This document shows positions 23,057 to 45,746 of a stretch of DNA of 64,000 bases, piece by piece. The translations under genes were made by a program, and so were the position numbers. Origin of the DNA: an uncultured virus (IMG/VR IMGVR_UViG_3300002835_000031) (taxonomy: Duplodnaviria > Heunggongvirae > Uroviricota > Caudoviricetes); the IMG/VR virus record IMGVR_UViG_3300002835_000031; one strand, 5' to 3'. Each line of letters starts with the position of its first letter. Position 1 is the stretch's first letter. The notes under the pieces are model-generated. The model was not told the DNA's origin and ran no database searches. It saw only the letters and a program-made list of their open reading frames with translations.

Positions 23057-23584
23057 TTATTCTAGTGGATTCGTCGGCCAAGTAACATCACTTATTGTTT
23101 TAATTTTAGTAGTGCCCTCAACATAACCATTCACATCTAGATCTCTAAGTGCTTGTCTGTATGCCAATACATCTGCGAATTGTTGATCTGTTAGTTTATG
23201 GGAAATATTTAACAAAGTCTCTTCTTGATGTCTTTGTAAAATGTAATCAGTATTATATATCAACATTTCTCGTTGAGCAGATGCAGGAACTCTTGCAGTA
23301 TTCATTGCCAAGTCTGCAATAGCCGCCTGTTCGATATTTGCCAAGTGTTCTGCGATCCAAACAATTGCGGGCAAACTTGAACCGGAAGAAACGACACCAT
23401 TTAGTTCTTCAACCGCATAAAGGTTTCTGTCTGGTTCATATGAAACTCTACGGACAGTATCTGTAAATGGAAAATTTGTGTGTTCTATAAACACAGATGG
23501 GGCAGAAAATAAATAACCCGTACCATTGAATCTACAAGATACTGTTCCATTATAAAAATCTATTGAGACATAGTTATGTAACAT
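23057..23584 (-). CDS. tail fibre assembly chaperone-like protein
   Basis: C-terminal YRQALRDL...VTWPTNP; directly follows a fibre gene. Confidence 0.75.
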   Translation of the reverse strand: MLHNYVSIDFYNGTVSCRFNGTGYLFSAPSVFIEHTNFPFTDTVRRVSYEPDRNLYAVEELNGVVSSGSSLPAIVWIAEHLANIEQAAIADLAMNTARVPASAQREMLIYNTDYILQRHQEETLLNISHKLTDQQFADVLAYRQALRDLDVNGYVEGTTKIKTISDVTWPTNPLE

Positions 23585-26456: not shown

Positions 26457-27248
26457 TTATTTAAGTCCCAATTCTTTACGAATCTTTGTGGCAGAGATTG
26501 AATGTGTGGCATCATCAAACACTTCTTGTTCAATTTTATATCCAACATCTCGACCATATGTAATGTTTACAATATTTGGAACAACCTGAATCTCATATTG
26601 TCCCTGATATAATGTATCAAGATCTCGTCTAATGTAGCTCTTAACCTGTTCGATAGCAAAGGGATTGGAACCATTCCAACCTTGGCAATCTCTGATCTGA
26701 ATAACAACCTGTCCGGTCTTGGCAATTGATCTTTCGAACAATGCTCGGTGTCCAGGGTGCCAAGGTTGCCAACGACCTAGCATCTGTACTGTTTCTTTTT
26801 GCCAGTCAAATACTGGTCTGCGTCTGTTATCATAAATGTGAGCCACAATAAACTCTGCCCACTTCTCTGCATTTTGTTCTGTTATTCTAAAGTCATATAC
26901 ATCTGGCGGCACAAATGCCTTGTTGGTATCTTCAAAGCGGCCTTTTTCAATAGTATCAACCCAGACAGTCCAGTCTGCTTTGAAATTGTTTCGCATCTCG
27001 GCCAAAGGTGCAACGAAATCGCAAATAACATAATCAGTTGTCATGCCATCAGCAAGTTCTCGCATACGCAAACTTTGACGAATACGACCTTCTCGACTGA
27101 AATCCCAATCATTGTATTTTTTACGAACATCATCAGCATTGAGCCAAGAAACTGTTTTCTTTTCTCTTTGCAGGTATTCTAAAATATATTGGGAAAGATA
27201 TGTCTTGCCCGCACCTGGTAAACCCATTACTAAAATTCTCTGTGTCAT
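26457..27248 (-). CDS. cysC: adenylylsulfate (APS) kinase fused to an HxGH nucleotidyltransferase domain
   Basis: N-term GLPGAGKT, LNADDVR, DFSREGR, VICDFVAP, FVPP; C-term GRWQPWHPGH...ISATKIR; AATAAATA at 27280-27287. Confidence 0.85.
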   Translation of the reverse strand: MTQRILVMGLPGAGKTYLSQYILEYLQREKKTVSWLNADDVRKKYNDWDFSREGRIRQSLRMRELADGMTTDYVICDFVAPLAEMRNNFKADWTVWVDTIEKGRFEDTNKAFVPPDVYDFRITEQNAEKWAEFIVAHIYDNRRRPVFDWQKETVQMLGRWQPWHPGHRALFERSIAKTGQVVIQIRDCQGWNGSNPFAIEQVKSYIRRDLDTLYQGQYEIQVVPNIVNITYGRDVGYKIEQEVFDDATHSISATKIRKELGLK

Positions 27249-27308: not shown

Positions 27309-28460
27309 TTAATTTGTAATAGATAGCATATTTGCTCCGGCTGCAACACTGTACCATGTTGTAGACGAACCAACTTGTACTGGACTGGATCTATGTGTAG
27401 TATTGCCTAAACCAAGTGAGCCGGATCCATTTGCGCCCCATGTCCATAATGTACCATCGGTTTTGATTGCAGCACTAGTAAGATTACCAGCGGAAACCAT
27501 TGACCAATTTGTTAGTGCGCCAACCTGTACTGGGCTAGATTTGCTGATAGTAGTGCCGTCACCTAAATTGCCGTAAGTAGTATTATATCCCCATGACCAT
27601 AACGTTCCATCTGTTTTTATTGCTAAGGTATAACCGTCACCACCATCAATACTTGACCACGTAGTCAATGCGCCAATTTGTACTGGACTGGATCTATATA
27701 TAGTAGTGCCGTCACCTACATTGCCGTAATAATTGTAGCCCCAGCTCCATAAGGTGCCGTCTGTTTTAATGGCCGCGCTGGTGGACGACGCCGCGGCTAT
27801 CTTTGACCAAGTTGTTAGTGCACCAATTTGTTTTGGACTTGAATAATCTGTGGTATTACCCAAGCCTAATCGGCCAGAGCCACCACTACCCCAAGCCCAC
27901 ATGGTACCATCTGTTTTGACGGCTATGGTATGCAGAGAGCCGCCAGCAATTTTTGACCATGTGGTTAAAGCACCAATCTGTACTGGACTTGATCTGAATG
28001 CGGTATCACCTAACCCCAATTGCCCCATGCCAGTGCCATAATTTCCGCCCCATGACCACAAGGTACCATCTGTTTTAATGGCCAGGCTGTGACTATAGCC
28101 TGCAGCAATACTCAACCAAGTAGTTAAAGCACCAACTTGTACTGGGCTAGATACTCTACCAGATGGATATGTGCCAACTGGTTCGCCATTGCCCAATTGC
28201 CCAAATTGATTATATCCCCAGGTCCACAAGGTGCCATCAATTTTTGTTGCCATGCTGTACTGACCGCCTGTGGCAATCTGTGACCATGTGGTTAGTGCGC
28301 CAATCTGCACAGGACTAGATCTATCAATAGTAGATCCGTCACCAACTGCGCCGTAGGCATTATACCCCCATCCCTGTAGGTAATATACTGGCGGAATTGG
28401 AAAGACTGCTTGCGCGCTAACGTCGCCGACGAAATTTAAGCCTGAAAAAGTAAATGCCAT
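27309..28460 (-). CDS. RCC1-type beta-propeller protein
   Basis: Seven KTDGTLW.WG repeats; MAFTFSG...PIPP leader. Confidence 0.92.
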   Translation of the reverse strand: MAFTFSGLNFVGDVSAQAVFPIPPVYYLQGWGYNAYGAVGDGSTIDRSSPVQIGALTTWSQIATGGQYSMATKIDGTLWTWGYNQFGQLGNGEPVGTYPSGRVSSPVQVGALTTWLSIAAGYSHSLAIKTDGTLWSWGGNYGTGMGQLGLGDTAFRSSPVQIGALTTWSKIAGGSLHTIAVKTDGTMWAWGSGGSGRLGLGNTTDYSSPKQIGALTTWSKIAAASSTSAAIKTDGTLWSWGYNYYGNVGDGTTIYRSSPVQIGALTTWSSIDGGDGYTLAIKTDGTLWSWGYNTTYGNLGDGTTISKSSPVQVGALTNWSMVSAGNLTSAAIKTDGTLWTWGANGSGSLGLGNTTHRSSPVQVGSSTTWYSVAAGANMLSITN

Positions 28461-28472
28461 TTTGTTGTTCTT

Positions 28473-29594
28473 TTAATTTGAGATTGCCAGGATCACGTAG
28501 TCTGTGTTCGTAACACTAATCCACGTAGTGCGTGCGCCAATTTGTTTAGGGCTTGAATATGCTGTAGTATTACCTAAACCCAATGTGCTATTGCCACCGG
28601 TACCCCATGACCACAATGTACCATCTGTTTTAATTGCGTGGGCGGTGTAGCCTTTACTACTAACACTTGACCAAGTAGTCAATGCACCAATTTGAACCGG
28701 ACTAGATCTACTTGTAGTATCTCCTACCCCAAGGGCACCTTGATAATTTCTTCCCCACGACCACATTGTGCCATCGGTTTTAATGGCATATCCGCTTTCT
28801 GAACCTGCATTAATCGTTGACCAATTAGTTAGAGCACCAATTTGTTTTGGGCTTGAATATGCTGTAGTATTTCCTAAACCAAGTCTACCATGTGCATTTG
28901 TTCCCCACGACCACATGGTACCATCTGTTTTAATGGCCATGCTGTAGTATAATGCAGAAACATTTAACCAAGCTGTTAGAGCACCAACTTGTACTGGACT
29001 AGATCTGTTATTAGTATCTCCTAAGCCCAACTGACCGTTAGTATTGCTTCCCCACGACCATAAGGTACCATCTGTTTTAACGGCCAGGCAATGATATGTT
29101 CCACCAGAAATATTTAGCCAATTGGTTAATGCACCAATCTGTACTGGACTGGATCTGTTATTAGTATCTCCTAAGCCTAATGATCCTTGACCATTTCCGC
29201 CCCAAGCCCACAATGCGCCGTTTGTGTTAATAGCAACACCACCATTAAATCTAGCGGATATCTTTGCCCATGTAGTTAGAGCACCAATTTGTTTAGGACT
29301 AGAATACCGTGTGGTATTACCTAGGCCTAAATGTCCCGAATCGTTGTAACCCCATGTCCACATGGTACCATCGGTTTTAAGGGCTAGACTGTAAAGATAT
29401 TGCCCAGCAGTACTACTCCAATTAGTCAATGCCCCAACCTGATTCGGACTAGATCTACTTGCGGTATCGCCTAGCCCAAGTTGCCCAAAGTTCTGGTATC
29501 CCCATGACCATAAGTAAAATTCTGGAGGAGCGGGATGAGTAGTTGTGAGGTTAAGACCGGTTATTCCGCTTATGCCAGATAAAGTAAATGCCAT
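28473..29594 (-). CDS. RCC1-type beta-propeller protein
   Basis: Seven repeats; MAFTLSG...PAPP leader. Confidence 0.92.
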   Translation of the reverse strand: MAFTLSGISGITGLNLTTTHPAPPEFYLWSWGYQNFGQLGLGDTASRSSPNQVGALTNWSSTAGQYLYSLALKTDGTMWTWGYNDSGHLGLGNTTRYSSPKQIGALTTWAKISARFNGGVAINTNGALWAWGGNGQGSLGLGDTNNRSSPVQIGALTNWLNISGGTYHCLAVKTDGTLWSWGSNTNGQLGLGDTNNRSSPVQVGALTAWLNVSALYYSMAIKTDGTMWSWGTNAHGRLGLGNTTAYSSPKQIGALTNWSTINAGSESGYAIKTDGTMWSWGRNYQGALGVGDTTSRSSPVQIGALTTWSSVSSKGYTAHAIKTDGTLWSWGTGGNSTLGLGNTTAYSSPKQIGARTTWISVTNTDYVILAISN

Positions 29595-29610
29595 TTTGTT
29601 TTTCTTTTAA

Positions 29611-30759
29611 TTAATAGTAACCGATTGCTGCAGAGTGATAAAAAGTACCGGCAGCGGCATTTGTCCAAGCTGATAATGAACCTACTTGTGTTGGACTAGA
29701 TCTATCTAAAGTATCTCCTAGCCCAAGATTACCTGTACTTTGATATGTATCACCCCAAGACCATAGTGTGCCATCTGTTTTAATTGCCAACGTAAAATAC
29801 GAGCCCGAGTAAACGTTTCCCCAATTAGTTAATGCACCAACCTGTACTGGACTAGATCTATCTGTAGTATTGCCTAACCCTAATCGTCCATCTGCACCGT
29901 AACCCCATGACCACATGGTACCATCTGTTTTAATGGCCATATGATAATAATTACCAGCAGAAACCTTAGACCAATTTGTAAGGGAACCTACCTGTACTGG
30001 GCTAGATCTATGTGTAGTATCACCTTGGCCGAGTTCTCCATAAAAATTACTTCCAGTTGTCCATAATGTACCGTCTGTTTTAATTGCGGCCAGATGATAT
30101 GGACCTGCAGAAACTGTTGACCAAGTTGTTAAAGCACCAATCTGTACTGGACTAGATCTATCTGTAGTATTACCTTGACCTAATTGTCCGTAGGTATTTT
30201 TACCCCATCCCCACATTGTACCATTGGTTTTAATTGCATGAACGGTTCTATAATTGCCAGCTGAAACTTTTAACCAATTTGTAAGGGAACCTACCTGTAC
30301 TGGGCTGTCTCTATTTGATTCATCTCCTAATCCCAATGCACCTTTATAATTATTTCCCCATGCCCACAATGTTCCGTCTGTTTTAACTGCGGCAGTGTGA
30401 TAACCTCCACCGTCAAAACTATCAGCATTGCCGGCCCAATTAGTTAATGCACCAACTTGTTTTGGACTTGAATAAGTTGTAGTATTACCCAGCCCCAATA
30501 TTCCAGATACACCGTATCCCCATGTCCATAATGTACCATCGGTTTTAACCGATATTTTATGATAACCTCCGGCAGCAACTCTTAACCAATTAGACAATGC
30601 GCCAATTTGCACTGGGGTAGATTTATCAATTGTAGTTCCGTCACCTAGTGCACCATATCCACCATCACCCCAACTCCAAAGGTAATACCCCGGAGGAGTG
30701 GGTTGAATTATGTTAATTGTTACCCCTGCGTATCCGCCGCCTGAAAATGTAACTGCCAT
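29611..30759 (-). CDS. RCC1-type beta-propeller protein
   Basis: Seven repeats; MAVTFSG...PTPP leader. Confidence 0.92.
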   Translation of the reverse strand: MAVTFSGGGYAGVTINIIQPTPPGYYLWSWGDGGYGALGDGTTIDKSTPVQIGALSNWLRVAAGGYHKISVKTDGTLWTWGYGVSGILGLGNTTTYSSPKQVGALTNWAGNADSFDGGGYHTAAVKTDGTLWAWGNNYKGALGLGDESNRDSPVQVGSLTNWLKVSAGNYRTVHAIKTNGTMWGWGKNTYGQLGQGNTTDRSSPVQIGALTTWSTVSAGPYHLAAIKTDGTLWTTGSNFYGELGQGDTTHRSSPVQVGSLTNWSKVSAGNYYHMAIKTDGTMWSWGYGADGRLGLGNTTDRSSPVQVGALTNWGNVYSGSYFTLAIKTDGTLWSWGDTYQSTGNLGLGDTLDRSSPTQVGSLSAWTNAAAGTFYHSAAIGYY

Positions 30760-30786
30760 TTTTTGTTCTTTTCTTTTTTTTAATTT

Positions 30787-31914
30787 TTAGTTACTGATGG
30801 CCATGCTGTGAAAATAACCTGCGGCAACACTTGACCAATTAGTTAAAGCCCCAATTTGCACCGGACTAGATCTATCTGTAGTATTTCCTAAACCCAATTG
30901 ACCCGTATTATTAAAACCCCATGACCACATGGTACCGTCTGTTTTGATGGATAGGTTGTGATATTCACCGGCATCAACACTTGACCAAGTGGTTAACGCG
31001 CCAATTTGTGTTGGACTAGATCTATTTGCGGTATCGCCTAAACCCAATCGCCCCGCATAATTTCTACCCCATACCCACATGGTACCATCTGTTTTAATGG
31101 CCAAGTTATGATATTGACCAGCAGCAATATTTAACCAATTAGTTAAAGATCCAACTTGTTTTGGACTAGAATAGTATGTCGTATTACCTACCCCCAATTG
31201 CCCAAAATTATTTTTACCCCATAACCACATGGTTCCATCTGTTTTAATTGCCGATGTGTGCTCATAACCTGCAGCAATATTTAACCAATTAGTTAAAGAT
31301 CCAACTTGTTTTGGACTAGAATAGTATGTCGTATTACCTAGGCCTAATTGCCCTTTACCCCCAATACCCCATACCCACATGGTACCATCTGTTTTAATGG
31401 CCAAGTTATGATATTGACCAGCAACAATATTTGACCATGTGTTTAATGCACCAACCTGTACTGGACTAGATACAGATGTAGTATTACCTAGGCCTAATCG
31501 CCCGGCGGACCCGTTACCCCATACCCACATAGTACCATCTGTTTTGAGCGCCAGATTGTGTTGACCACCTGCACCAATTTTTGCCCAGGTAGTTAATGCA
31601 CCAATTTGTACTGGATTTGAATAATTTGTGGTATTACCTAAACCTAATTGACCAAGGCTACCCGATCCCCAAGACCATAGTGTACCATCTGTTTTAATGG
31701 CCAAGTTATGATATTGACCAGCAGCAATATTTAACCAATTAGTTAAAGCCCCAACTTGTACAGGACTAGATCTATCGGTAGTATTGCCTAATCCTAATTG
31801 ACCTGAATTATTTCTGCCCCATGACCACAGGTATTGCGGAGGAGGTGGCGGCGGAGCTGGGCATACTAGATTAAACCCGCCCCTTGTTGAAAAACCTGAA
31901 AAGGTAAATGCCAT
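30787..31914 (-). CDS. RCC1-type beta-propeller protein
   Basis: Seven repeats; start reassigned to MAFTFSG at 31914 by analogy with paralogs. Confidence 0.92.
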   Translation of the reverse strand: MAFTFSGFSTRGGFNLVCPAPPPPPPQYLWSWGRNNSGQLGLGNTTDRSSPVQVGALTNWLNIAAGQYHNLAIKTDGTLWSWGSGSLGQLGLGNTTNYSNPVQIGALTTWAKIGAGGQHNLALKTDGTMWVWGNGSAGRLGLGNTTSVSSPVQVGALNTWSNIVAGQYHNLAIKTDGTMWVWGIGGKGQLGLGNTTYYSSPKQVGSLTNWLNIAAGYEHTSAIKTDGTMWLWGKNNFGQLGVGNTTYYSSPKQVGSLTNWLNIAAGQYHNLAIKTDGTMWVWGRNYAGRLGLGDTANRSSPTQIGALTTWSSVDAGEYHNLSIKTDGTMWSWGFNNTGQLGLGNTTDRSSPVQIGALTNWSSVAAGYFHSMAISN

Positions 31915-31927
31915 TTTGTTTTTCTTT

Positions 31928-33058
31928 TTATCCGATAGCCAGGCTGAAAGAACCACCTGCAGAAACATTTGCCCAATTTGTTAATGATCCAATCTGCACT
32001 GGACTAGATCTATTTGTGATATCGCCTATACCCAATCGACCAGATTGATTATCGCCCCATGACCACATGGTACCATCTGTTTTAATGGCCAGATTGTGTT
32101 CAACACCCCCTGAAATATTTAACCAAGTAGTTAATGCACCAACTTGTACTGGACTAGATCTATTTGTAGTATCTCCTAACCCCAATGAGCCTACTGCATT
32201 TCTTCCCCAAGACCATAAAGTACCATCTGTTTTTACAGCCAGGCCGTGATAATACCCAGCGGAAACACTTTGCCAAGTAGTTAATGCGCCAATCTGTACA
32301 GGACTAGATCTATTTGTAGTATCGCCCAATCCAAGTTCGCCGTAACCATTAGCGCCCCATGTCCATAAAGTTCCATCTGTTTTAGTTGCGAGGGCACCAA
32401 ATCTAATATTAGTAATATTTGACCAAGTGGTTAAAGCGCCAATTTGTTGTGGGCTAGATGTATTTGTAGTATTACCCAATCCCAATTGCCCGTTAGACCC
32501 TTGTCCCCATGACCACATAGTACCATTGGTTTTAATTGCTGCAGCACCGTTTCCAGCAAGTGAAATTATAATTGCCCAATCAGTTAAGGAACCTACTTGT
32601 ACTGGACTAGAATATGATGTAGTATTGCCCAATCCTAACTTGTAACCATAATTACCACCCCACGCCCATAAGGTACCATTGGTTTTTATAGCAAACATAT
32701 TAGACGCTTTCCCTGTACTAATATTTGCCCAAGTAGTTAAAGCTCCAATCTGTTTTGGAGAAGAATAATATGTAGTATTACCTAAGCCTAATTGACCTGC
32801 ATAATTTCTGCCCCAAGACCACATTGTGCCATCTGTTTTTAGAGCCATTGCCCAACCTTCTGCTGCAGCAATACTTGACCAAGTGGTCAATGCACCAATC
32901 TGTTTTGGAGAAGAATAATCTGTAGTATTACCTAACCCCAATCGACCACTAATACCTTGACCCCATGACCAAAGATAATATATCGGAGGTGGTGGTGGTT
33001 GAGTAGTGGTAAATGATATACCCGAATAATTGCCGATACCTGAAATAGTAAATGCCAT
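31928..33058 (-). CDS. RCC1-type beta-propeller protein
   Basis: Seven repeats; MAFTISG...PPPPP leader. Confidence 0.92.
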   Translation of the reverse strand: MAFTISGIGNYSGISFTTTQPPPPPIYYLWSWGQGISGRLGLGNTTDYSSPKQIGALTTWSSIAAAEGWAMALKTDGTMWSWGRNYAGQLGLGNTTYYSSPKQIGALTTWANISTGKASNMFAIKTNGTLWAWGGNYGYKLGLGNTTSYSSPVQVGSLTDWAIIISLAGNGAAAIKTNGTMWSWGQGSNGQLGLGNTTNTSSPQQIGALTTWSNITNIRFGALATKTDGTLWTWGANGYGELGLGDTTNRSSPVQIGALTTWQSVSAGYYHGLAVKTDGTLWSWGRNAVGSLGLGDTTNRSSPVQVGALTTWLNISGGVEHNLAIKTDGTMWSWGDNQSGRLGIGDITNRSSPVQIGSLTNWANVSAGGSFSLAIG

Positions 33059-33073
33059 TTTGTTCTCTTTTTA

Positions 33074-34207
33074 TTAATAGCTAATAGCCAAAGTGAACGT
33101 ACCAACTGCATCAATCTTTGACCAATTAGTTGATGAACCAATCTGTGTTGGGCTTGATCTATTTGTGGTATCACCTAACCCCAATCGACCGGATCCATTT
33201 CCACCCCAAGCCCACATGGTACCATCTGTTTTAATGGCCACGCTGTGACTTCTACCGGCATCAATACTTGACCAATTGGTTAAAGCACCAACTTGAACTG
33301 GGCTTATATATTGAGTGGTACCACCTAAACCTAACATTCCTATATAATTGCGACCCCATCCCCACAAGGTGCCATTATTTTTCAGGGCCACGCTGTGAGC
33401 ATATTTACCCCCAGCAACACTTAACCAATTGGTTAGACCCCCTACCTGTTTTGGGCTAGAATAATATGTATAATTATTTAATCCTAACTGACCAAAAGCA
33501 TTCATCCCCCATGACCATAACGTACCATCTGTTTTGACGGCCATACTGGCCCTATACCCTCCAGCAATATTTAACCAAGTAGTTAATGAACCAATTTGTA
33601 CTGGACTAGATCTATTTGAGGTATCGCCTAGCCCCAGTGAACCGTGTTGATTAACTCCCCATGCCCACATGGTACCATCTGTTTTAATGGCCATGGTATG
33701 CTGACCACCTGCATTAATCTTTGACCAAGTAGTTAATGCACCAATTTGTACTGGACTAGATATACTTGTAGTATTGCCTAACCCCAATCGACCGCTATTA
33801 TTATAACCCCATGACCACATGGTACCATCTGTTTTAATGGCTATGTTGTAGAAGAAACTTCCTTCAATTGTTGCCCAATTGGTTCCTGCGCCAATCTGTA
33901 CTGGACTAGATCTATCTGTAAGATCCCCCAAACCTAACTGCCCCGTATCATTGTAACCCCATGACCATAAGGTACCATCTGTTTTGAGGGCCATGCCGTG
34001 ATTATACCCGGCAGCAATATTCAACCAAGAGCCTAGCGAACCAATTTGTTTTGGACTTGAATAACTTGTAGTATTACCTAAACCTAGTCGACCGTCGCTT
34101 CCACTACCCCACGACCATAGATAAGATGTTGGTTCGGGAGGTGGAGGTGGAGTATACACCATGTCGAAACTACCTTTTGTGGTTATACCCGAAAAAATTA
34201 ATGGCAT
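33074..34207 (-). CDS. RCC1-type beta-propeller protein
   Basis: Seven repeats; MPLIFSG...PPPPPEP leader. Confidence 0.92.
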   Translation of the reverse strand: MPLIFSGITTKGSFDMVYTPPPPPEPTSYLWSWGSGSDGRLGLGNTTSYSSPKQIGSLGSWLNIAAGYNHGMALKTDGTLWSWGYNDTGQLGLGDLTDRSSPVQIGAGTNWATIEGSFFYNIAIKTDGTMWSWGYNNSGRLGLGNTTSISSPVQIGALTTWSKINAGGQHTMAIKTDGTMWAWGVNQHGSLGLGDTSNRSSPVQIGSLTTWLNIAGGYRASMAVKTDGTLWSWGMNAFGQLGLNNYTYYSSPKQVGGLTNWLSVAGGKYAHSVALKNNGTLWGWGRNYIGMLGLGGTTQYISPVQVGALTNWSSIDAGRSHSVAIKTDGTMWAWGGNGSGRLGLGDTTNRSSPTQIGSSTNWSKIDAVGTFTLAISY

Positions 34208-34225
34208 TTTTTTTTATTCTTTTTA

Positions 34226-35332
34226 TTAATTACTGATGGCATGGCTAAAATAACTACCTGCAGCAACACTTAACCATTTTGTTAATGCGCCAATCTGTAC
34301 TGGACTAGATCTATTGGTAGTAGTGCTGTCGCCTACTTGACCATTTCCGTTACCGCCATGTCCCCATAATGTGCCATCTGTTTTAATAGCCAATACATGT
34401 CGAGGACCTGCAGTAACATTTGACCAAGTTGTTAAAGCGCCAATTTGTACTGGATTAGATCTGTCTGTAGCATCACCTAAACCCAATTGTCCTTCATCAT
34501 TGTTACCCCATGACCACATGGTACCATCTGTTTTGATTGCAACACTGCCAGCAGAATGAACAGCAACCTTTGACCAAGTAGTTAAGGCACCGATCTGTGT
34601 TGGGTTAACTGCGTTAGAGGTATTACCTAATCCCAATCTGTTATTTTGACCGCTACCCCATGTCCACAAGGTACCATTTGTTTTAACTGCCACGGCGTGA
34701 TACCACGAAATTGCAAATGTTGACCAATTGGTATCTGTACCAACTTGTACTGGACTAGAACCGGCTCTACCTTGCGTTGCTTCGCCTCCACCAGAGCCTA
34801 TCGACCACAACGTACCATCAGTTTTGCCGGCAAGGGTAAAGTACCTACCTGCAGAAACATTCAACCAAGTTGTTAGTGCACCTACTTGTTTTGGACTTGA
34901 ATATGGTGAAGTATTACCTACACCTAATTGCCCGTAGCTATTACCACCCCATGCCCACATGGTACCATCCGTTTTAACTGCCATGGTGTGATTTCTACCT
35001 CCAGAAACTCGTGACCAAGTTGTTAGTGCACCTACTTGTTTGGGACTTGAATAGTTTGTAGTATTACCTACACCCAATTGACCAACATTGTTTATACCCC
35101 AAGACCATAGACTACCATCGGCTTTGATAGCCATGCCATGATAACCTCCTGCGGCAACACTTAACCAAGTAGTTAAAGCACCAATTTGTACTGGACTAGA
35201 TCTATTTGTGGTATCGCCTAACCCCAATCGACCAGAGCTATTACCGCCCCATGACCATAAGTAAAATTCTGGTGGTGGTGGAGGAGGCTGAATATTGACT
35301 CCGCCTAATATAGTTATTCCGATTAGATCCAT
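34226..35332 (-). CDS. RCC1-type beta-propeller protein
   Basis: Seven repeats; MDLIG...PPPPPP leader. Confidence 0.92.
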   Translation of the reverse strand: MDLIGITILGGVNIQPPPPPPEFYLWSWGGNSSGRLGLGDTTNRSSPVQIGALTTWLSVAAGGYHGMAIKADGSLWSWGINNVGQLGVGNTTNYSSPKQVGALTTWSRVSGGRNHTMAVKTDGTMWAWGGNSYGQLGVGNTSPYSSPKQVGALTTWLNVSAGRYFTLAGKTDGTLWSIGSGGGEATQGRAGSSPVQVGTDTNWSTFAISWYHAVAVKTNGTLWTWGSGQNNRLGLGNTSNAVNPTQIGALTTWSKVAVHSAGSVAIKTDGTMWSWGNNDEGQLGLGDATDRSNPVQIGALTTWSNVTAGPRHVLAIKTDGTLWGHGGNGNGQVGDSTTTNRSSPVQIGALTKWLSVAAGSYFSHAISN

Positions 35333-35361
35333 TTTGTTTTCTTATTATCTTTTACAATTTA

Positions 35362-36240
35362 TTAAAATGTTATTGAACCAGAACTGGTCCATTTATATAT
35401 TCTATATCCGCCGGATACTATTACGTTGGGAGATCCTGTTGTATTTGATGCGGCCGGATTAATATCTTCGTAACGAAGTATAACTATACCGGAACCACCA
35501 GCTCCGGAACCGCTACCGTTGCCTACTTGATTACCGCCGCCGCCACCGCCGGTATTTACATTGCCGGCAGCATTACCGGCACCGCCGCCGTATCCTATAC
35601 TAGCTGTGATATCGGATCCGCCACCAACGCCACCGGATCCGCCTCCGGCATATCCAACACTTGTACCGGATATAGAGGAGTTTATACCTGCTCCACCAAA
35701 ACCGCCGGCGGTGGTGGTGGCTGCTGCTCCAACTGCGCCAGCGCCACCACCACCGCCACCGCCACCAGTTTCTTGGCCACCACCAGCTCCGCCATTATAG
35801 CCTTGTCTTGGTGGTCCAGCAGTTCCAGAACCGCCGCCACTTGCTAGTCTACCACCTTGACCACCACCCGATCCACCGTTATTTATAGAACCTATGCTGC
35901 CGCCGGCGGCATTACCTGCACCACCGCCGATTGCTGTTGCAGTTCCGCTTATTGATGAATTTGCCCCAACACCGCCATTTAGTCCGTTGTTATTTCCTGT
36001 AGCAGTGCCGCCGGCACCTACTGTAATAGTAAGTGTAGAGCTACTAACTAACAAGGCTGTTCCTGTTAATAATCCGCCGGCGCCACCACCGCCACCACCG
36101 CCCCGCTGGTTATCAGCTGATCCACCACCTGCACCGCCCGCGACTACAAGGTATTCTATAGTAGGAGTCACCGGCGGTGTTGGAATATGCACCGCAGTCA
36201 ATGCTCCGTTTATTCTTACGCCTGAAATTGTTAGTGCCAT
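35362..36240 (-). CDS. glycine-rich virion/adhesin-like protein
   Basis: IEYLVVAGGAGGG...NTGGGGGG...GGSGIVILRY...YRIYKWTSSGSITF. Confidence 0.85.
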   Translation of the reverse strand: MALTISGVRINGALTAVHIPTPPVTPTIEYLVVAGGAGGGSADNQRGGGGGGGAGGLLTGTALLVSSSTLTITVGAGGTATGNNNGLNGGVGANSSISGTATAIGGGAGNAAGGSIGSINNGGSGGGQGGRLASGGGSGTAGPPRQGYNGGAGGGQETGGGGGGGGAGAVGAAATTTAGGFGGAGINSSISGTSVGYAGGGSGGVGGGSDITASIGYGGGAGNAAGNVNTGGGGGGNQVGNGSGSGAGGSGIVILRYEDINPAASNTTGSPNVIVSGGYRIYKWTSSGSITF

Positions 36241-36256
36241 TTTGTTCTTTTAATTT

Positions 36257-37399
36257 TTAGCTACTGATGGCTAAAGACCATCGTTGACCTGCGGCAACAC
36301 TTGACCAATTAGTCAATGAACCCACTTGAATCGGACTAACTACCGGTGTAGTAGTAGTGCCATCACCTACTTCACCATATGAATTCCTGCCCCAAGACCA
36401 CAAGGTACTGTTAGTTTTAATTGCCAAATTATGATATCTACCCGCGGAAATCTTTAACCAATTGGTTAACGCGCCAATTTGGGTTGGACTAGATCTACGT
36501 TCTTGATCACCTAATCCCAATCTACCGGCGCCAGTGTTACTATTATCACCCCATGACCACATGGTGCCATCTGTTTTAATGGCCACGCAGTGACTACTAC
36601 CTCCAGCAATACTTGCCCAAGTAGTACCTGCACCAACTTGTGTTGGACTAGAATAATCTGTAGTATTGCCTAGTCCCAACATGCCATAAGCATTTCTACC
36701 CCAAGTCCATATGGTACCATCTGTTTTAACTGCAATACCGTGATAAGAACCCCCAGAAACTCTTAACCAATTGGTTAATGCGCCAATTTGTACTGGGCTA
36801 GATACATTTGTAACATTACCTAAGCCTAGTGCACCAAAAGTATCATTTCTACCCCAAGACCATATGGTACCATCTGTTTTAATTGCAGCGGTCCAACTTC
36901 CCGAACCTGCAGAAACACTTGCCCAAGTGGTGCCTGCACCAATTTGTACTGGACTAGATACACTTGTGGTATTGCCTAAACCCAATTGACCATAATTATT
37001 TTTACCCCATGACCACAAGGTGCCATCTGTTTTAACGGCCATGCTGTGATACCTACCTGCACTAACATTTAACCAAGTAGTTAATGCACCAACCTGTACT
37101 GGACTAGATGTATTTGTAGTATTGCCAAGGCCTAATTGACCATCGCCATTGAGACCCCATGCCCACATGGTACCATCTGTTTTAGTCGATAAACTGTGAT
37201 AGCCCGCCGCAATATTTAACCAAGTAGTTAATGCGCCGACTTGTGTTGGACTAGCTACATTTGTAGTATTGCCTAACCCTAATTGACCGGCATTGTTTCT
37301 GCCAAAACTCCATAGGTAATATATTGGTGGAGGAGGAGGTGGAATATGCACCGCATTAAGATTACCGGTTATAGTAAAACCGGAGATGGTCAGGGCCAT
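36257..37399 (-). CDS. RCC1-type beta-propeller protein
   Basis: Seven repeats; MALTISG...PPPPPP leader. Confidence 0.92.
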   Translation of the reverse strand: MALTISGFTITGNLNAVHIPPPPPPIYYLWSFGRNNAGQLGLGNTTNVASPTQVGALTTWLNIAAGYHSLSTKTDGTMWAWGLNGDGQLGLGNTTNTSSPVQVGALTTWLNVSAGRYHSMAVKTDGTLWSWGKNNYGQLGLGNTTSVSSPVQIGAGTTWASVSAGSGSWTAAIKTDGTIWSWGRNDTFGALGLGNVTNVSSPVQIGALTNWLRVSGGSYHGIAVKTDGTIWTWGRNAYGMLGLGNTTDYSSPTQVGAGTTWASIAGGSSHCVAIKTDGTMWSWGDNSNTGAGRLGLGDQERRSSPTQIGALTNWLKISAGRYHNLAIKTNSTLWSWGRNSYGEVGDGTTTTPVVSPIQVGSLTNWSSVAAGQRWSLAISS

Positions 37400-37840: not shown

Positions 37841-37848
37841 TATTTATA
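37841..37848 (-). promoter_or_regulatory. T4-type late promoter heading the 27.3-37.8 kb array
   Basis: TATAAATA. Confidence 0.75.
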
Positions 37849-37873: not shown

Positions 37874-38500
37874 TTAACCCGGTTGTAGGAATATAAGGTG
37901 TGTCAATCTACTGTTGTTAACGTCTGTTCCAAAATGTTGGCCCATATGGTGCCATAACCAGGGCCTGAACAGCACTGCCCGATTAAACTTAATGTCTACA
38001 TTCAATTCGGTTTTCCATAAATCAGTATTTATACCCTCAGTTTCAAAGAAATTTCGCATATCTTCAAATGTTTTTACTCCAATTGCGTCACTTTCGGTGT
38101 AATCTTTAGGGGCAATAGTCATACCGGTTCTTTTATGGGAAACAATTTTTGTCCCGGCATCTCTACCTTCATAATGCTCGGGCAGACTTAAATAAACTAC
38201 TCCTGCCCATGTTTGCCCGGGGGTTGGATCAAAATGCACAATTTGTTTTGCAATGTCTTTTTCTCTAGTATGTCTGAAATATCCGTTGGCTGAAGGCTTT
38301 GCAGGCTTTACGGTTTCGCCAGTTGCTTTACATAACATTTTTGTAATGGTTGTATCCCAATACGATCTCGTGGTGTTTAGCCCTGGATAGTTGGGTGTCA
38401 GGCCTTCTGGCTCATACTCCGCGTTCAATGCCATATCCCGCATCATATAAGGATCGGAATAAAAATCATCTATAACTATTACTTTTTTATCAAATTCCAT
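37874..38500 (-). CDS. 2OG-Fe(II) oxygenase (DUF6445-like)
   Basis: VIVIDDFYSDP, YPG, HFD (HxD), WAGVVYL, FNRAVLF...WHH, SRL; probable start MEFDK at 38500. Confidence 0.8.
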   Translation of the reverse strand: MEFDKKVIVIDDFYSDPYMMRDMALNAEYEPEGLTPNYPGLNTTRSYWDTTITKMLCKATGETVKPAKPSANGYFRHTREKDIAKQIVHFDPTPGQTWAGVVYLSLPEHYEGRDAGTKIVSHKRTGMTIAPKDYTESDAIGVKTFEDMRNFFETEGINTDLWKTELNVDIKFNRAVLFRPWLWHHMGQHFGTDVNNSRLTHLIFLQPG

Positions 38501-39272
38501 TTTTAATATCAAACTGTGAAAAATATTTACATAAACTCTCACCAAGTACTTCTTGTGCAGAATCACTGGTCTTTTCTAATTTACCTCTGATTGTATGCAG
38601 ATCTTTCAATCCCCATGCAGTATCTTTGGCTTCACCGCAAGTATTTGTGATACTATCGAACTTGTGGTCATATCTATTTATTTCCAAGAAATCGTATATC
38701 TTATTAATTGTGTCTTGAGGTGTTTGTACTAGATCATCATACTGCACAAAATATAAATTTTCTTTATAATTTTTCATGCCTATCTGTAAACTTTCCCACG
38801 GATCTCTAATATAGGATTCCCACAGTTCCATTGCTCTTGTGTTTGTATTTATCGGCTTGCGCTTTTTTTTCAATGCTGCATCAATAAAATTGTTTGGATC
38901 TTTATTAAGTAGCTTGATGAAACTTGTGACAACTTCCGCAACCGGTCTGTTGGTACAAATGACCTTGGGGTTTTCAGAAATGTGTAGCTTTGCTGGCATA
39001 ACATTCCTTGCCCAAGCTCTGTGCTTGTCTATAATATGAGGCTTCTTTATGCTCTCATAATATGCTTTGGGTAACGCAGTGTATATGGATGCAGATTGAT
39101 TTTCAACATCAAAGGTATATTGCTGAGTAACTCTATTGAGTGCCTCATTTTGCAGGCATAACAAATCCAATAAAGGACTTGTGGGGGAAACATATACCTC
39201 TGGATTTTGATTTAAAATTGATCCAAGCAATGTTGAACCTGATCTAGGTAAGCCGCTTAAAAAGTATATCAT
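38490..39272 (-). CDS. sulfotransferase
   Basis: PAPS-binding FLSGLPRSGSTLL..ILNQNP; IDKHRAW; R....V..SF; YDDLV..P. Confidence 0.9.
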   Translation of the reverse strand: MIYFLSGLPRSGSTLLGSILNQNPEVYVSPTSPLLDLLCLQNEALNRVTQQYTFDVENQSASIYTALPKAYYESIKKPHIIDKHRAWARNVMPAKLHISENPKVICTNRPVAEVVTSFIKLLNKDPNNFIDAALKKKRKPINTNTRAMELWESYIRDPWESLQIGMKNYKENLYFVQYDDLVQTPQDTINKIYDFLEINRYDHKFDSITNTCGEAKDTAWGLKDLHTIRGKLEKTSDSAQEVLGESLCKYFSQFDIKNGI

Positions 39273-41026
39273 TGTATATTCATTCCCAAAAGTTTTTCTC
39301 TAACTTTCACAAAAGGTGCTTCCCAATCTCCGTATTTTTCTTGGCGCATCAAGGTAAAGCAATCATAATAGGGAGTACGATCTCCATCTAATGCATATAA
39401 GAAGTATGGCATAATTGGAGTAACAACCCAGGTATCAACACCCATAGCACCAGCAAGGTGACTGACAGATGTGCATGAACTAATTACCAGATCACATTCG
39501 GCAACTGCTTTACGAGTATCTTCCCATGTATTTAATGGAACTTTTCTAACCCAGAATGGACATTCATCTTCGCCCTCATCTCTTTGCAAGCTAATAAACT
39601 CTGCATTGATACCTCGAAGTGCCTCAAACATTAATTCTGATGGGAACTTCTTATGATGCTCATGCTCAAATTGTGGGTTGCCTTGCCATCTCAATCCAAT
39701 ACGCATCTTTTTGCCTTTGATTGAGAATGGCTTTCTAATGTAAGGTGCGCCGGATATGTCGTCAAGTTCTAATCCCAACGGAACAGCTGCAGACATACCT
39801 GCTACCCAGAAATCATGATATACTCCATAGATTGATTCGTGTTGCACAACTGCGGATACACCCTCAACATCTATAAACAAAGATGCCAACATACCAGTAC
39901 AACATACCATGACTTTACATCCTCGATCTGCAATAACTTTTGCATAACGAACTTGGTGTATTTGATCTCCCAATCCACCTTCAAGGTATAGCATTACGAT
40001 ACCTTTTGTTTTTCCATCCCACATAGGCATAGGTGTATCTGGTCTACTGTTTCCAAACACACCAACAATCCGACCACGATCCATTAGGCTATAACCTTTT
40101 TGGATTTCACCTTGACGCAAATAATACCAACCTCTGTTATAAGCTGCTCTATGGTTAAGTGGTTCAGCTGCTTCTATTTTTTGAGAAAGTCTCCAACCTT
40201 CATCGAAGTCTCCTCGGGTACTTGCTTCGAGTTGAAAATCAAGATCGTGTTTTTCTTGTACTGTTCTTGGAGTTTTTAACCAGAACTCACCCTGACAGAA
40301 TGTGGGATAATGATGCTTTAATAATTCTCTCGGGTCTTGATTATGCTGACGCTGTAGTACAGGTTTAATATCATGCATACCTGCATACCCGTGAATGTTC
40401 TCATCGTCTTCTGATACTGTAGAACCATCAATATTCCCAAAGTCATAATTAAAATCTGGTAGACCCAAGAACTCATGAATACGTTTTAGTTCTTTCTTGG
40501 GATCTTTAACTAAATCCTCATACTCAACAAACAGGAAATTTTCTGGGGCAAATTTATACCCTTCTTGCAATGAGATATAAGCTGCCTTCAAGTGATCCAT
40601 TAACTGACCTGAATAGATAAGTTGATCTAAGTCTGTGGGTTTTGCCACACGAACAAAAGATGCAGCACAATCGGGCACGGAACGAACCGTTGCAATAACT
40701 TTAGGTCTTCTTTCAAGAACCGCAGACATGGCTGCCATAATTTGTGGAATAGGCCATCCGCGAGATTTATCTATAACAACGGGCTTGTCTACATCTGAGT
40801 AAAACGCATCAATAGTCCCTCGCATTGTTGCCGCCAATTTAGAACGATCCGCATCGTTCTCATTTAATAACCCAGCACTATGCCAAGTATTTGCCAAGCC
40901 ATCTAAGGCATGGACCAACCCAGATGTTGTACTAACATGGGTCATTGGATTTTGATTTAAAATGGCTGCCAGAACTGTAGAACCAGAGCGGGGAATGCCT
41001 GCAAGAAAATGTAGTTGTTTATTCAT
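39269..41026 (-). CDS. sulfotransferase + TPR + GT9-like (GT-B) glycosyltransferase fusion
   Basis: FLAGIPRSGSTVL; AAYNRGW helix; EGGLGDQI, IGLRWQGNP, ISLQ, DLVISSCTSVSHLAGAMG. Confidence 0.85.
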   Translation of the reverse strand: MNKQLHFLAGIPRSGSTVLAAILNQNPMTHVSTTSGLVHALDGLANTWHSAGLLNENDADRSKLAATMRGTIDAFYSDVDKPVVIDKSRGWPIPQIMAAMSAVLERRPKVIATVRSVPDCAASFVRVAKPTDLDQLIYSGQLMDHLKAAYISLQEGYKFAPENFLFVEYEDLVKDPKKELKRIHEFLGLPDFNYDFGNIDGSTVSEDDENIHGYAGMHDIKPVLQRQHNQDPRELLKHHYPTFCQGEFWLKTPRTVQEKHDLDFQLEASTRGDFDEGWRLSQKIEAAEPLNHRAAYNRGWYYLRQGEIQKGYSLMDRGRIVGVFGNSRPDTPMPMWDGKTKGIVMLYLEGGLGDQIHQVRYAKVIADRGCKVMVCCTGMLASLFIDVEGVSAVVQHESIYGVYHDFWVAGMSAAVPLGLELDDISGAPYIRKPFSIKGKKMRIGLRWQGNPQFEHEHHKKFPSELMFEALRGINAEFISLQRDEGEDECPFWVRKVPLNTWEDTRKAVAECDLVISSCTSVSHLAGAMGVDTWVVTPIMPYFLYALDGDRTPYYDCFTLMRQEKYGDWEAPFVKVREKLLGMNIQ

Positions 41027-41083
41027 AAAATCACCTAATTATTGTGGTATATACTAATATTTTATCGGATTTAAGATATTTTG

Positions 41084-41860
41084 TCAATACTTATCCCACC
41101 ATTCTCTCCAATTTATAAATGGATCCTTTTCGGTATCGAATTGCATATGTAGTGCAAGACTTGGAATCGGTATAAGCAAAAAATATCCGCGTGTTTTAAA
41201 CAACTGATTAATGGATTCATCTTCCATTGTTGGGGATACTTTACTTGTTCCCATTTTATAAAACAAATCCCATTCGTTTTTTATAATGCTAATGTGCGTC
41301 ATAAAACAACTTGAAGTCAAGATGTTTGTTCTCCAATGTCTACCTGAAGATTGTACTACGTATGAGGGAATTTGTGTATTTACCGGAATGTAATGATAGG
41401 GATCATTGAATGGGAAAATACTAACAGGTTTATTTAATCTGGTGCTGGCATCTACCCAGGTGTTGACCATATCACGAATTGCGTTTATTTCATATAGGTA
41501 ATCATCTTGAACAAAGTATACTAGGTCTTTACCAAATTGTTTGCCGTGTTCGTAACATCTAAGAATTGAGGGCATAATGCCTCTTGTTTCCAATTGCGTA
41601 ATGTTATATGGTACATTGCATTTAGATGCAATACTTATTAGTTTATCGAATGAAGCCTCATCCGAATGATCGTCAAATACTTGCAGGGAAATATCAACGT
41701 GCGGTAATAGATCAGATGCATAGTTAATCGATTCAACAAGACTTGTAACGCATCTGCGCATAATTTCAGCTTTGTCTGTACCGCAGTATCTTTGTTTTGT
41801 AGTATCTCTGCTTTTTACGGAATGTGTCTGCAATACTACTAATAGATTCAATTTATTCAT
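41084..41860 (-). CDS. GT2-like (GT-A) glycosyltransferase
   Basis: FDDHS, VYFVQDDYL (DxD-like), IPSLALH. Confidence 0.75.
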   Translation of the reverse strand: MNKLNLLVVLQTHSVKSRDTTKQRYCGTDKAEIMRRCVTSLVESINYASDLLPHVDISLQVFDDHSDEASFDKLISIASKCNVPYNITQLETRGIMPSILRCYEHGKQFGKDLVYFVQDDYLYEINAIRDMVNTWVDASTRLNKPVSIFPFNDPYHYIPVNTQIPSYVVQSSGRHWRTNILTSSCFMTHISIIKNEWDLFYKMGTSKVSPTMEDESINQLFKTRGYFLLIPIPSLALHMQFDTEKDPFINWREWWDKY

Positions 41861-42402
41861 TCTTTAATTACCTTCAATTTAATATTAACTTCCATGATAA
41901 TGTTATTGTGTTCTTGCACATATCTTTCAACTTCTTCTTCGGGTCTGCCGTTGAATATTTTATAATATCTTTGATCAGGAATATTTTCCACTTCTGCAAG
42001 CTCAAAGTCTACATTGTAATAATGCGCCAATCTAGAAGCAGATTCTCCTCGTTGTTTGCATAGATCATTGTATTTTTTACTAAAAAGCCCTAATCCTTCA
42101 GCAGTTATTGGTCTACGATGTGTTGGATCATTTGCAAAATATTCATGTCTATGATGTGGTACTACAATATCAATTATAGCATCATGCTTACAAACACGAT
42201 ATAGTTCTTTGATTGCGTGAAAATACCCTTCGCCCATGTGCTCTAACACATGATGCGCAATTACTTCTTCTACGGAGTTATCTTCAAACGGCCATGTGTC
42301 GTTTTCGAGATCAAATTTAAAATCAGGATTACAATTATCATCGTAATCACAATTTAAAAATCCATCATATTGTTTATCACCTGCTCCAATATTTAATTTC
42401 AT
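41857..42402 (-). CDS. class I SAM-dependent methyltransferase
   Basis: KLNIGAG, WPFEDNSV, HVLEH, ELYRVCK, DPTH. Confidence 0.88.
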   Translation of the reverse strand: MKLNIGAGDKQYDGFLNCDYDDNCNPDFKFDLENDTWPFEDNSVEEVIAHHVLEHMGEGYFHAIKELYRVCKHDAIIDIVVPHHRHEYFANDPTHRRPITAEGLGLFSKKYNDLCKQRGESASRLAHYYNVDFELAEVENIPDQRYYKIFNGRPEEEVERYVQEHNNIIMEVNIKLKVIKE

Positions 42403-42417
42403 AATATTTCCAATAAT

Positions 42418-42909
42418 TTACTTTTCTATTAATCTAAAAATTTGCACAATTCCACTATCAAATGAATGGAATAACCAAGGCCTGAAAAATACAGCTTGCC
42501 CCGGTTTCAACTGATGGTTAACCATTAGATCCCATTCAAATAAATTTCTATAATTGTGTTGGTATCCGTCTAATGCAGTTAATGCGCCGGATTTGTGTTC
42601 AAAGATGTTAAATGTAGATTGATCTATTGCGACTACAAGTAACCATTCCTTTAAAGAATCAAATCCTTCGAAGTGTATCAGTAATTCGGGGAATCGAAAC
42701 ACGCCCGACTTTTCTCTATCAACTGTAACATCTTTACCAAGTACGGTTGAGAATAGTTTATCTGCGTCTGCAGGGATGTGATTGAAATTTAATATTTCTT
42801 TACCAAACTCAGTTGATTGAAAGTTTAAACCTCTAACCACATTATGTAAATTGGTTGCGCTTTCTACATTATAAAATTCATCAACCGTCATTGTTTTAAT
42901 TAATGCCAT
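42418..42909 (-). CDS. 2OG-Fe(II) oxygenase-like protein (short paralog of 37874..38500)
   Basis: VDEFY, IHFE (HxE), FEHKSG, VFFRPWLFH; GATAAATA at 42944-42951. Confidence 0.7.
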   Translation of the reverse strand: MALIKTMTVDEFYNVESATNLHNVVRGLNFQSTEFGKEILNFNHIPADADKLFSTVLGKDVTVDREKSGVFRFPELLIHFEGFDSLKEWLLVVAIDQSTFNIFEHKSGALTALDGYQHNYRNLFEWDLMVNHQLKPGQAVFFRPWLFHSFDSGIVQIFRLIEK

Positions 42910-45374: not shown

Positions 45375-45746
45375 TTAGCTTATATCCTCATAACTGCAAG
45401 TTACGTGAAGAACATTTCCAGTATCTGCAGTTGCCCCTAAACTTGTATTTTCTTCCAAGTAATATTGACTGCTTTTATCTATAACATTTAATGTACTGTT
45501 TCCAGGAACCGTTGTCCGGCCAACAATATTAAATGCATTGCCACTCAAGCTAGCTGCAGAATAATAACTTATTGTTACATTTGCAGACGTTGAAGTGTAA
45601 TTTGAAACGTTCAATACATTTATCTTTAAACATTTGCCAGAACTAGCGGCATTGTTTAGTATAGAAGTTGCAGTTATAGTTGTTAAGTTTGCTCCCGCTG
45701 TTTTACCATTGATTATTGTTGCGCCGATTATGTTTGGTGCTGCCAT
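45375..45746 (-). CDS. small beta-rich fibre-associated adaptor-like protein (MAAPNI type)
   Basis: 123 aa; directly follows the 1787-aa fibre. Confidence 0.7.
   Translation of the reverse strand: MAAPNIIGATIINGKTAGANLTTITATSILNNAASSGKCLKINVLNVSNYTSTSANVTISYYSAASLSGNAFNIVGRTTVPGNSTLNVIDKSSQYYLEENTSLGATADTGNVLHVTCSYEDIS

Follow-up and report, generated by a model that had tools for sequence, protein, structure and literature searches.

Putative leader–linker–head display cassettes with replaceable heads in the RCC1 propeller array of an uncultured T4-like lake phage

A phage genome that carries the same β-propeller gene twelve times, each copy different, raises the question of what these copies are for and how they come to differ. 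The stretch in question, 64,000 nucleotides from an uncultured virus (IMG/VR record IMGVR_UViG_3300002835_000031; Caudoviricetes) and hereafter called the window, contains RCC1 propeller genes mainly between positions 27,309 and 37,399. The genes of the window lie on the minus strand and include those for a primase, a class Ia ribonucleotide reductase and ThyX besides spanin-like and long fibre genes; they place it in the genome of a T4-like phage, an uncultured lake phage whose closest primase matches are found in Methylophilales phage Melnitz and in cyanophages (≤43% identity). An earlier note, made from the sequence alone, had interpreted the twelve propellers as an antibody-like library of binding heads. 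Here, we argue that they probably belong to a larger set of display cassettes, in which a short N-terminal leader is retained while the head behind it is replaced.

All twelve RCC1 open reading frames (ORFs) were found where the note had placed them, on the minus strand (368–403 residues; Pfam RCC1 PF00415, E-values 1e-61 to 1e-89), although the start of the gene that ends at 30787 lies at 31914 and not at 31968, and the presumed RCC1 array at 27309–37399 comprises, besides eight RCC1 genes, a glycine-rich gene (35362–36240) with the same leader type. Cutting the proteins into repeats yielded seven blades in each of the 12 (84 in total, ~50 residues each, above the Pfam cut-off), and the gene lengths sum to 13.7 kb; both agree with the earlier description. 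The paralogs share 46–66% pairwise identity, their blades are ~59% alike, and no broken copy occurs among the 12 genes.

Overlooked by the earlier note were the common design of these genes and the swapping of heads, also across folds. Each product begins with a leader of ~20 residues, which a polyproline linker joins to the head. In ten of the 12 propellers, the first 18–20 residues show an alternating hydrophobic pattern that runs into prolines, and five genes without RCC1 repeats (35362, 52886, 12079, 25070 and 23597; genes are named here by their lower coordinate) share this leader style, which brings the array-type leaders to 15. Such a leader contains three short strand-like runs split by Gly or Asn and corresponds to about one coil of a β-helix. 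A second, longer leader class precedes propellers 42950 and 44162, and the glycine-rich 51165 has a third type of N-terminus. In the monomer model of the 30787 protein the leader region has low confidence (predicted local distance difference test, pLDDT, ~50), as would be the case if a partner were required. A search with a profile of the array-type leader gave 17 matches in 1.84 billion representatives, namely 13 leader-plus-head proteins of the same kind and four unrelated repeats. By motif rules, the second leader class is found in other phages on 128 distinct ORFs with RCC1 (118), Lcl-type (8) and other heads (2), one of the latter two looking Lcl-type by eye. The cassettes of the window, all on the minus strand, are:

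36257..37399, minus strand: slot 1, leader and RCC1 propeller
35362..36240, minus strand: slot 2, leader and Gly-rich head (Gly_rich_2); the leader has an RCC1 head in sister phage L254
34226..35332, minus strand: slot 3, leader and RCC1; the leader has an Lcl_C (PF07603) head in L254
33074..34207, minus strand: slot 4, leader and RCC1
31928..33058, minus strand: slot 5, leader and RCC1; leader two places further down in L254
30787..31914, minus strand: slot 6, leader and RCC1, the modelled protein; its blades share exact patches of 59–70 nt
29611..30759, minus strand: slot 7, leader and RCC1; the L254 head on this leader is closest to the 53861 head
28473..29594, minus strand: slot 8, leader and RCC1; in L254 this head stands behind the slot-9 leader
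27309..28460, minus strand: slot 9, leader and RCC1
10930..12066, minus strand: outlying leader and RCC1; leader kept in L016 and L043, head 59–69%
12079..12975, minus strand: leader and Gly-rich head; the leader has a LamG-like head in L043
25070..25969, minus strand: leader and Gly-rich head (ALK/LTK-like, weak); head kept in L254
23597..25024, minus strand: leader, Fn3-like domain and further domain; kept in L254
53861..54979, minus strand: leader and RCC1, directly after adaptor 54989
52886..53845, minus strand: leader and Gly-rich head
51165..52157, minus strand: Gly-rich head with the longer, different N-terminus
44162..45373, minus strand: RCC1 with second leader class (~45 residues, SG(I/V)W/F...WP type), after adaptor 45375
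42950..44143, minus strand: RCC1 with second leader class

The comparison with L254, a sister phage in which most flanking core genes are 93–98% identical, suggests how heads and leaders are inherited. L254 possesses the same nine-slot array with eight visible starts, and each of these eight leaders matches one window leader at 75–100%, the next best reaching 35–70%; the slot 5 leader has shifted its place in the gene order. The DNA identity between both phages ends at the linker, within the proline codons. Behind it, in the six slots with RCC1 in both phages, the heads are 53–66% identical, and when the 12 window heads are ranked by similarity, that of the own slot takes places 9, 1, 11, 4, 8 and 8, coming first in only one of six cases. 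In L254, the slot-9 leader carries a head that shares 74% identity with the slot 8 head of the window, and the slot-7 leader one that shares 68% with the head of 53861, which lies 24 kb away. A quick DNA-based tree of 21 heads contained only four well-supported forks, all of which join different slots. Three leaders even carry different folds in sister phages: from window to relative, slot 2 changes from Gly-rich to RCC1 and slot 3 from RCC1 to Lcl_C (both L254), and the 12079 leader from Gly-rich to LamG-like (L043). For the outlying gene 10930, the first 27 residues are 85–89% identical to those in the sister phages L016 and L043, but its gene-wide synonymous distance of 0.85–1.07 is far above that of its neighbours (0.13–0.59 in 11 comparisons), which argues for head replacement rather than point change. 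Taken together, these sequence comparisons show that heads are replaced by recombination, including by other folds, behind slot-specific leaders that are kept.

Several variants of the cassettes were observed. In the relatives L005 (5323–13153), L006 and L065, chains of 14 blades (two propellers) or 21 blades (three propellers) follow the same leader classes, and the database proteins P0123, P0127, P0129, P0131 and P0133 combine a leader with one to four blades and a natural-looking C-terminus, which reflects either blade deletion or assembly collapse of repeats. Within window positions 27309–36240, an A-rich stretch lacking a clear Shine-Dalgarno motif precedes each array ATG and is kept in L254; it could aid reordering or lower expression. 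Shine-Dalgarno motifs are weak before the head genes, with a difference (3/18 vs. 18/49) that is not significant (p = 0.15). Between the orthologs of 25070 and 23597, the sister phages L254 (11342–11896) and L174 (1704–2258) have a 2-oxoglutarate-Fe(II) oxygenase-like gene without counterpart in the window.

If the leaders are constant, what differs among the propellers? In an alignment of the 84 blades over 50 columns, 23 columns have an entropy below 1 bit, in line with the nearly invariant framework noted before. The five most variable columns (3.1–3.6 bits) all lie within the two segments already recognized, after WG and around GxxH; a third patch directly before SSP (3.0 and 2.3 bits) and four strand positions of the blade (2.4–2.9 bits) had been missed. 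Compared with eight enzyme genes of the window, the five top columns are rich in Tyr (19 vs. 4%), Ser (16 vs. 6%), Gly (11 vs. 5%) and Asn (10 vs. 5%), as had been claimed, whereas His, also named, is not enriched (1.9 vs. 2.7%) and Arg barely so (6.5 vs. 5.5%). Antibody binding sites are similarly rich in Tyr, Ser, Gly and Asn. An enrichment of N-x-S/T in the propellers is explained by the repeat consensus and missing from the fibres, and was not used.

An AlphaFold2 model of the 30787 protein (one of the 12; 375 residues, pLDDT 88.7) is a closed propeller with four strands per blade, and its best matches among the solved folds listed are the RCC1-like domains of UVR8 and HERC (template modeling score 0.85–0.88). 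When the propeller faces are assigned from the strand order of the four-stranded meander, the GxxH loop and the loop after WG share one face and the KTDGT and GALTxW loops the opposite one, with mean loop entropies of 2.6 and 1.8 bits against 0.6 and 0.6 bits. In a sequence alignment, the Trp and Arg of the UVR8 GWRHT motifs coincide with two of the five most variable columns, and these residues form the UVR8 dimer interface (PMC4501546). By these data, variation is concentrated on the side of the propeller through which UVR8 binds, as the earlier note had anticipated for one face. Its repertoire of binding heads thus gains support from this one-sided variability and from the gene context described below, with binding itself being a prediction.

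For the selection test, 12 independent close pairs were drawn from 228 seven-blade genes. Seven pairs at 78–88% identity gave a ratio of nonsynonymous to synonymous differences (pN/pS) of 1.03 on the variable and 0.18 on the opposite face, and five closer pairs gave 0.1–0.2 on the variable face; the face columns of the paralogs are saturated (pN 0.63, pS 0.62). Positive selection is therefore not shown: the variable-face pN/pS of these close pairs is, to one decimal, ≤1.0. Blades at corresponding positions of different genes resemble each other scarcely more than blades in general (identity 0.591 vs. 0.587; p = 0.04 for the variable columns), so position within the propeller is not entirely without influence. 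We counted 10 exact DNA tracts of ≥30 nt inside single genes and 30 shared by different genes, compared with means of 0.9 and 7 under a null model in which synonymous codons were shuffled within columns; neither count was reached in 300 shuffles, while measures of longer between-gene tracts were weaker (15/300 and 4/300). The sharing of such tracts is clear evidence that the propeller blades exchange, as judged from their DNA, short patches.

A dedicated diversity machine was not detected within the window: neither a family match nor a motif indicates a reverse transcriptase (RT), no template/variable repeat pair with adenine bias was obtained, and all head genes have one orientation, without a long perfect inverted pair or a recombinase family match, in agreement with the earlier note. 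The array, moreover, is nearly uniform across lake samples. Therefore, ordinary recombination rather than a diversity machine is probably at work. The array was recovered from all 24 listed freshwater or lake metagenome runs (0.78–0.98 of sampled words), four of which may be the source of the window itself; no RNA dataset carrying it is among these runs, and no viral contig was found that extends beyond the window end. Three viral contigs are 100% identical to the window across 15.9–21.1 kb, but may share a source, and others differ only in an nrdB patch. Of 32 listed contig pieces from four runs, outside of which lie 743 shorter ones, 28 have no difference, two have one and two have more. Both of the latter are single low-depth contigs and give a hint only: that from run X24 has 19 changes, at least 17 of them inside 31030–31065 (the variable loop in blade 6 of slot 6), for which an exact donor blade is absent among the 14 best-flanked window matches, and that from run X19 differs in slot 2, where it has five changes and lacks six bases at the leader-linker end (36162–36204). 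Turnover thus occurs between lineages, not within one sample. In this respect, and because pN/pS above 1 was not found, the term antibody-like library was an overstatement; RCC1 paralog arrays of similar size have also been published for Rak2-like phages.

The nrdB patch mentioned above (window 16121–16553) contains all 47 differences from L017–L019 and L173, whose remaining 12–18 kb are identical to the window except for Ns and contig ends; it looks like a recombined patch. Overlapping the end of nrdB is a Cys-rich ORF of 138 residues (15585–16001) without family match. Two small GIY-YIG endonuclease-like genes are located at 5281–5583 and 12977–13378, the second directly preceding the pair 12079–10930.

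Where the heads might act is suggested by the genes and promoters around them, all on the minus strand:

37841..37848, minus strand: T4-type late promoter consensus TATAAATA, heads 37420 and the nine-gene array
13401..13408, minus strand: late promoter consensus before 12977-12079-10930, kept in L016, L043 and L044
26437..26444, minus strand: late promoter consensus before 25971-25070-23597, kept in L174, L254 and L255
37420..37806, minus strand: companion gene of 128 residues, homolog in 22/68 RCC1 loci; no Pfam, PHROG or NCBIfam family
23057..23584, minus strand: tail fibre assembly chaperone-like gene (PHROG 8716, 4912, 188)
45375..45746, minus strand: small adaptor-like protein between fibre 45748 and heads
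52157..52486, minus strand: small adaptor-like protein (PHROG 1276)
54989..55318, minus strand: small adaptor-like protein, predicted jelly roll like trimeric cement/turret proteins
60070..60405, minus strand: small adaptor-like protein (PHROG 1276)
45748..51111, minus strand: repetitive fibre-like structural protein of 1787 residues (PHROG 697)
55329..60077, minus strand: repetitive fibre-like structural protein of 1582 residues (PHROG 697, 2952)
60409..62955, minus strand: tail fibre protein of 848 residues (PHROG 17885)
37874..42909, minus strand: enzyme block between head genes (DUF6445, sulfotransferase, fusion of sulfotransferase and tetratricopeptide repeats (TPR), methyltransferase, two unassigned genes)
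26457..27248, minus strand: fusion of adenosine 5'-phosphosulfate (APS) kinase-like and nucleotidyltransferase domains, closing the array

The late promoter consensus stands directly before three leader-gene operons and is kept for two of them in sister phages where covered. Of the seven minus-strand copies of TATAAATA, three fall 15–60 nt before a start, in zones that make up 4.8% of the window. We infer that the head genes are expressed late. The order fibre, adaptor, head recurs, and among 16 non-redundant adaptor homologs, nine are preceded by a gene ending in a hydrophobic AIA(M/F/Y)- or LILALG-like tail, most of these nine being followed by a leader-bearing or fibre-type gene. Adaptor 54989 was modelled as a small jelly roll (pLDDT 90.5) that best matches the trimeric cement protein of KHP40 (Z 10.1; root-mean-square deviation 2.6, 102 aligned), followed by a nucleoplasmin-type domain from a plant (9.6) and the turret protein of HFTV1 (9.1). 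No Foldseek match was obtained for it at E 0.001, sequence searches returned only ubiquitin-like noise, and its paralog 52157 falls into no named Atlas cluster. The product of 37420 is possibly a chaperone of fibre assembly, and those of the enzyme block and of 26457 might decorate heads or fibres. A homolog of the sulfotransferase-TPR fusion, the C-terminal part of which may, judging from a motif, be a glycosyltransferase, occurs in 42/68 RCC1 loci. Altogether, three of the enzyme genes of the array (37874–42909, 26457–27248) accompany RCC1 in 42, 10 and 15 of 68 loci; the APS kinase is a poor anchor for such loci, since 61/80 are without RCC1.

In phage phAPEC6, eight proteins of an array of eleven RCC1-like proteins were detected in the virion proteome with 1–5 peptides each (PMC7247149). 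By analogy to this detection, and from the late promoters and the neighbouring fibre and adaptor genes, the heads of the window phage are probably displayed on the virus particle. In the mechanism we propose, its genes would be cassettes of a plug-and-head display system. As the comparisons above show, the leader stays, whereas recombination in or close to the CCN-rich linker exchanges the head for that of another slot or for one of another fold, the folds involved being RCC1 propeller, Gly-rich, Lcl lectin-type and LamG-like. The leader would dock its head on the particle, probably at fibre ends via the small jelly-roll adaptors, with the variable face pointing outward to bind surface ligands. 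One virion might thus show up to ~18 different heads, in a set that would turn over between lineages. More speculatively, the 15 array-type leaders might form an address code, either as a mixed β-helical stalk of fixed order or for distinct sockets, and so program a bouquet of at least 15 heads; we regard this extension as doubtful, but if true, any fold that recombination places behind a leader would appear on the particle at the corresponding address, as in a plug-and-display system of natural origin.

A number of observations weigh against this proposal. The array comparison rests on one sister genome, in which slots 25070 and 23597 keep their heads (73 and 81%) and slot 6 (30787) keeps its best-matching one (66%), and at the position of 12079 L016 has a different leader (best 40%). 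The total count of TATAAATA in the window is not above chance, and the Z-scores of the adaptor are middling, with nucleoplasmin folds tying. The phAPEC6 proteins are only 25–30% identical in part, have an unrelated leader and were represented by few peptides, and the virion list of that phage also contains enzymes such as thymidylate synthase. Finally, a variable-face pN/pS of ~1.0 at most leaves room for relaxed constraint.

Which other explanations could account for the array? The heads might well sit on the particle and nevertheless be auxiliary adhesins for slime, particles or non-host cells rather than determinants of infection, a special case of display that we consider possible and to which we grant less than half of its probability. 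The T4 baseplate has fewer fibre tips than 18 heads. The adaptor fold resembles capsid cement and turret proteins, and hairy Rak2-like phages bear fibres on sheath and capsid (PMC7247149, PMC5259590), but the head genes follow tail fibre genes in the window as well as in cyanophage S-SRM01, and their fast turnover fits a host-driven race. Alternatively, the proteins could be intracellular binders, for instance inhibitors of host defence proteins, whose leader would serve as a tag for localisation or scaffolding. RCC1/BLIP-II propellers do bind proteins, and BLIP-II is a tight enzyme inhibitor (PMC9218822, PMC6121496); it is difficult to reconcile with such a role, which we deem unlikely, that these leaders also bear heads of lectin type and of a Gly-rich adhesin type, and that late promoters, fibre context and the presence of distant homologs in virions all point to the particle.

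A near-neutral gene accordion, in which tandem duplication and repeat recombination let surface loops drift freely, would explain why the variable-face pN/pS is about 1 and not above, given that repeats recombine readily and repeat propellers amplify continually (PMC9218822). It would hardly explain nine intact slots with slot-specific leaders kept in both sister phages, the absence of broken copies, the constraint on the opposite-face loops (0.18) or the Tyr-rich variable face, and appears quite improbable to us. DNA-organising or inner-body proteins were proposed by the authors of phAPEC6 for its array (PMC7247149). Eukaryotic RCC1 does bind nucleosomes; for the window phage such a role is very improbable, as Lys makes up just 1.9% of the variable face, this face is not the same from paralog to paralog, and the propellers interchange with lectin-type folds. 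We attach equally little weight to the idea that a diversity-generating retroelement or inversion system encoded outside the window acts on these genes. The C-type-lectin-like fold, to which the Lcl heads belong, is often targeted by such retroelements, and the search for RT and template covered the 64-kb window. Retroelement targeting has also been noted for the FGS domain (PMC7824862). On the other hand, an adenine-biased template pair and an RT motif were absent from the window, synonymous sites are as diverged as between paralogs, variation extends over all seven blades and the population is nearly uniform.

Particle display with head replacement would provide RCC1 paralog arrays, which in the literature consulted are left unexplained or tied to DNA packing, with a testable function. 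The fetched loci contain 265 distinct RCC1 ORFs, 242 of them with a short N-terminus, which indicates a common design in lake phages. The copy number of the window phage is high for its family, as the comparison with relatives suggested by the earlier note revealed: 72 other loci anchored on 37420 hold 0–4 RCC1 copies (within ≤20 kb). If a leader of 20 residues suffices to mount an arbitrary domain, this would explain how many adhesins can be refreshed at once without a retroelement, and it would offer a display tag as well as a natural collection of propeller binders that share one stable scaffold.

Among known systems, the arrays of Rak2-like jumbo phages are most similar, being tandem arrays of many stand-alone RCC1 genes of ~380 residues with a short N-terminal leader. 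Besides the eleven copies in phAPEC6, 13 were reported for 121Q and six for PBECO4, and gp1 of GAP32 was detected by mass spectrometry (PMC5259590). Serratia phage BF (KY630187) has RCC1, Gly-rich and other heads behind one leader related to that of phAPEC6, one of its Gly-rich heads being homologous to 12079 at the C-terminus, and pEa_SNUABM_49 has a LamG head; the LamG-like head of L043 does not align with BF_0548. In Rak2-like jumbo phages (L266, 9302–18837; L268; L269; L270), heads of the RCC1, Gly-rich and LamG types all follow a single short leader. A leader-only ORF of 32 residues occurs in BF and an internally deleted copy of 85 residues in pEa_SNUABM_49. In contrast to the window phage, where each slot has its own leader, these arrays share a single MLPF-type leader (in the phAPEC6 records on 10/10 translated RCC1 genes, one from an internal Met), and their blades are divergent (25–34% local identity to those of the window), whereas the window blades are ~59% alike and exchange DNA. 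Rak2-like arrays were detected in virions, while that of the window phage is known from its genes. The consulted parts of the papers on these arrays propose DNA ordering and mention neither leaders nor head swapping.

The gp38 adhesins of T-even phages, which serve as the functional model for the cassettes, have a fixed attachment part and variable loops and recombine at conserved motifs (PMC12032242; haloarchaeal equivalents PMC8651126). They resemble the cassettes, which include Gly-rich heads, in the conserved N-terminal attachment, the variable binding loops and the exchange of the binding part by recombination, but gp38 is a single adhesin gene per genome, of one fold and with a folded attachment domain on gp37, compared with ~18 genes, four folds and a leader of 20 residues in the window phage. 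Its RCC1 heads lack the combination of attachment domain, β-helix and polyglycine sandwich in one monomer, and 12079 has no sequence match to solved gp38. UVR8 and HERC share the seven-bladed fold and, for UVR8, the interface positions, but are eukaryotic single-copy proteins. BLIP-II, which the earlier note had put forward as the likeness in fold, is not among the structure matches listed; it is a secreted protein of ~28 kDa with three-stranded blades (PMC6121496), unlike the four-stranded window model. The cultured cyanophage S-SRM01 (NC_070963) has three RCC1 genes after a tail fibre gene (44% identity), with TPR, sulfotransferase, oxygenase and glycosyltransferase genes as neighbours, but only these three copies and other leaders, and its RCC1 genes are unmentioned in the main text of the paper. 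Diversity-generating retroelements, too, place a variable binding surface on a fixed phage scaffold, but by RT, template repeat and adenine bias, of which the window contains none that could be found. RCC1 arrays as such are therefore already known from Rak2-like jumbo phages, whereas slot-specific leaders with cross-fold swapping were not found described in the main texts searched, which were mostly open-access. The feature of the window phage belongs to the RCC1-like family, operates after the manner of gp38 shuffling but spread over many genes, and is similar to the Rak2-like arrays while standing outside them.

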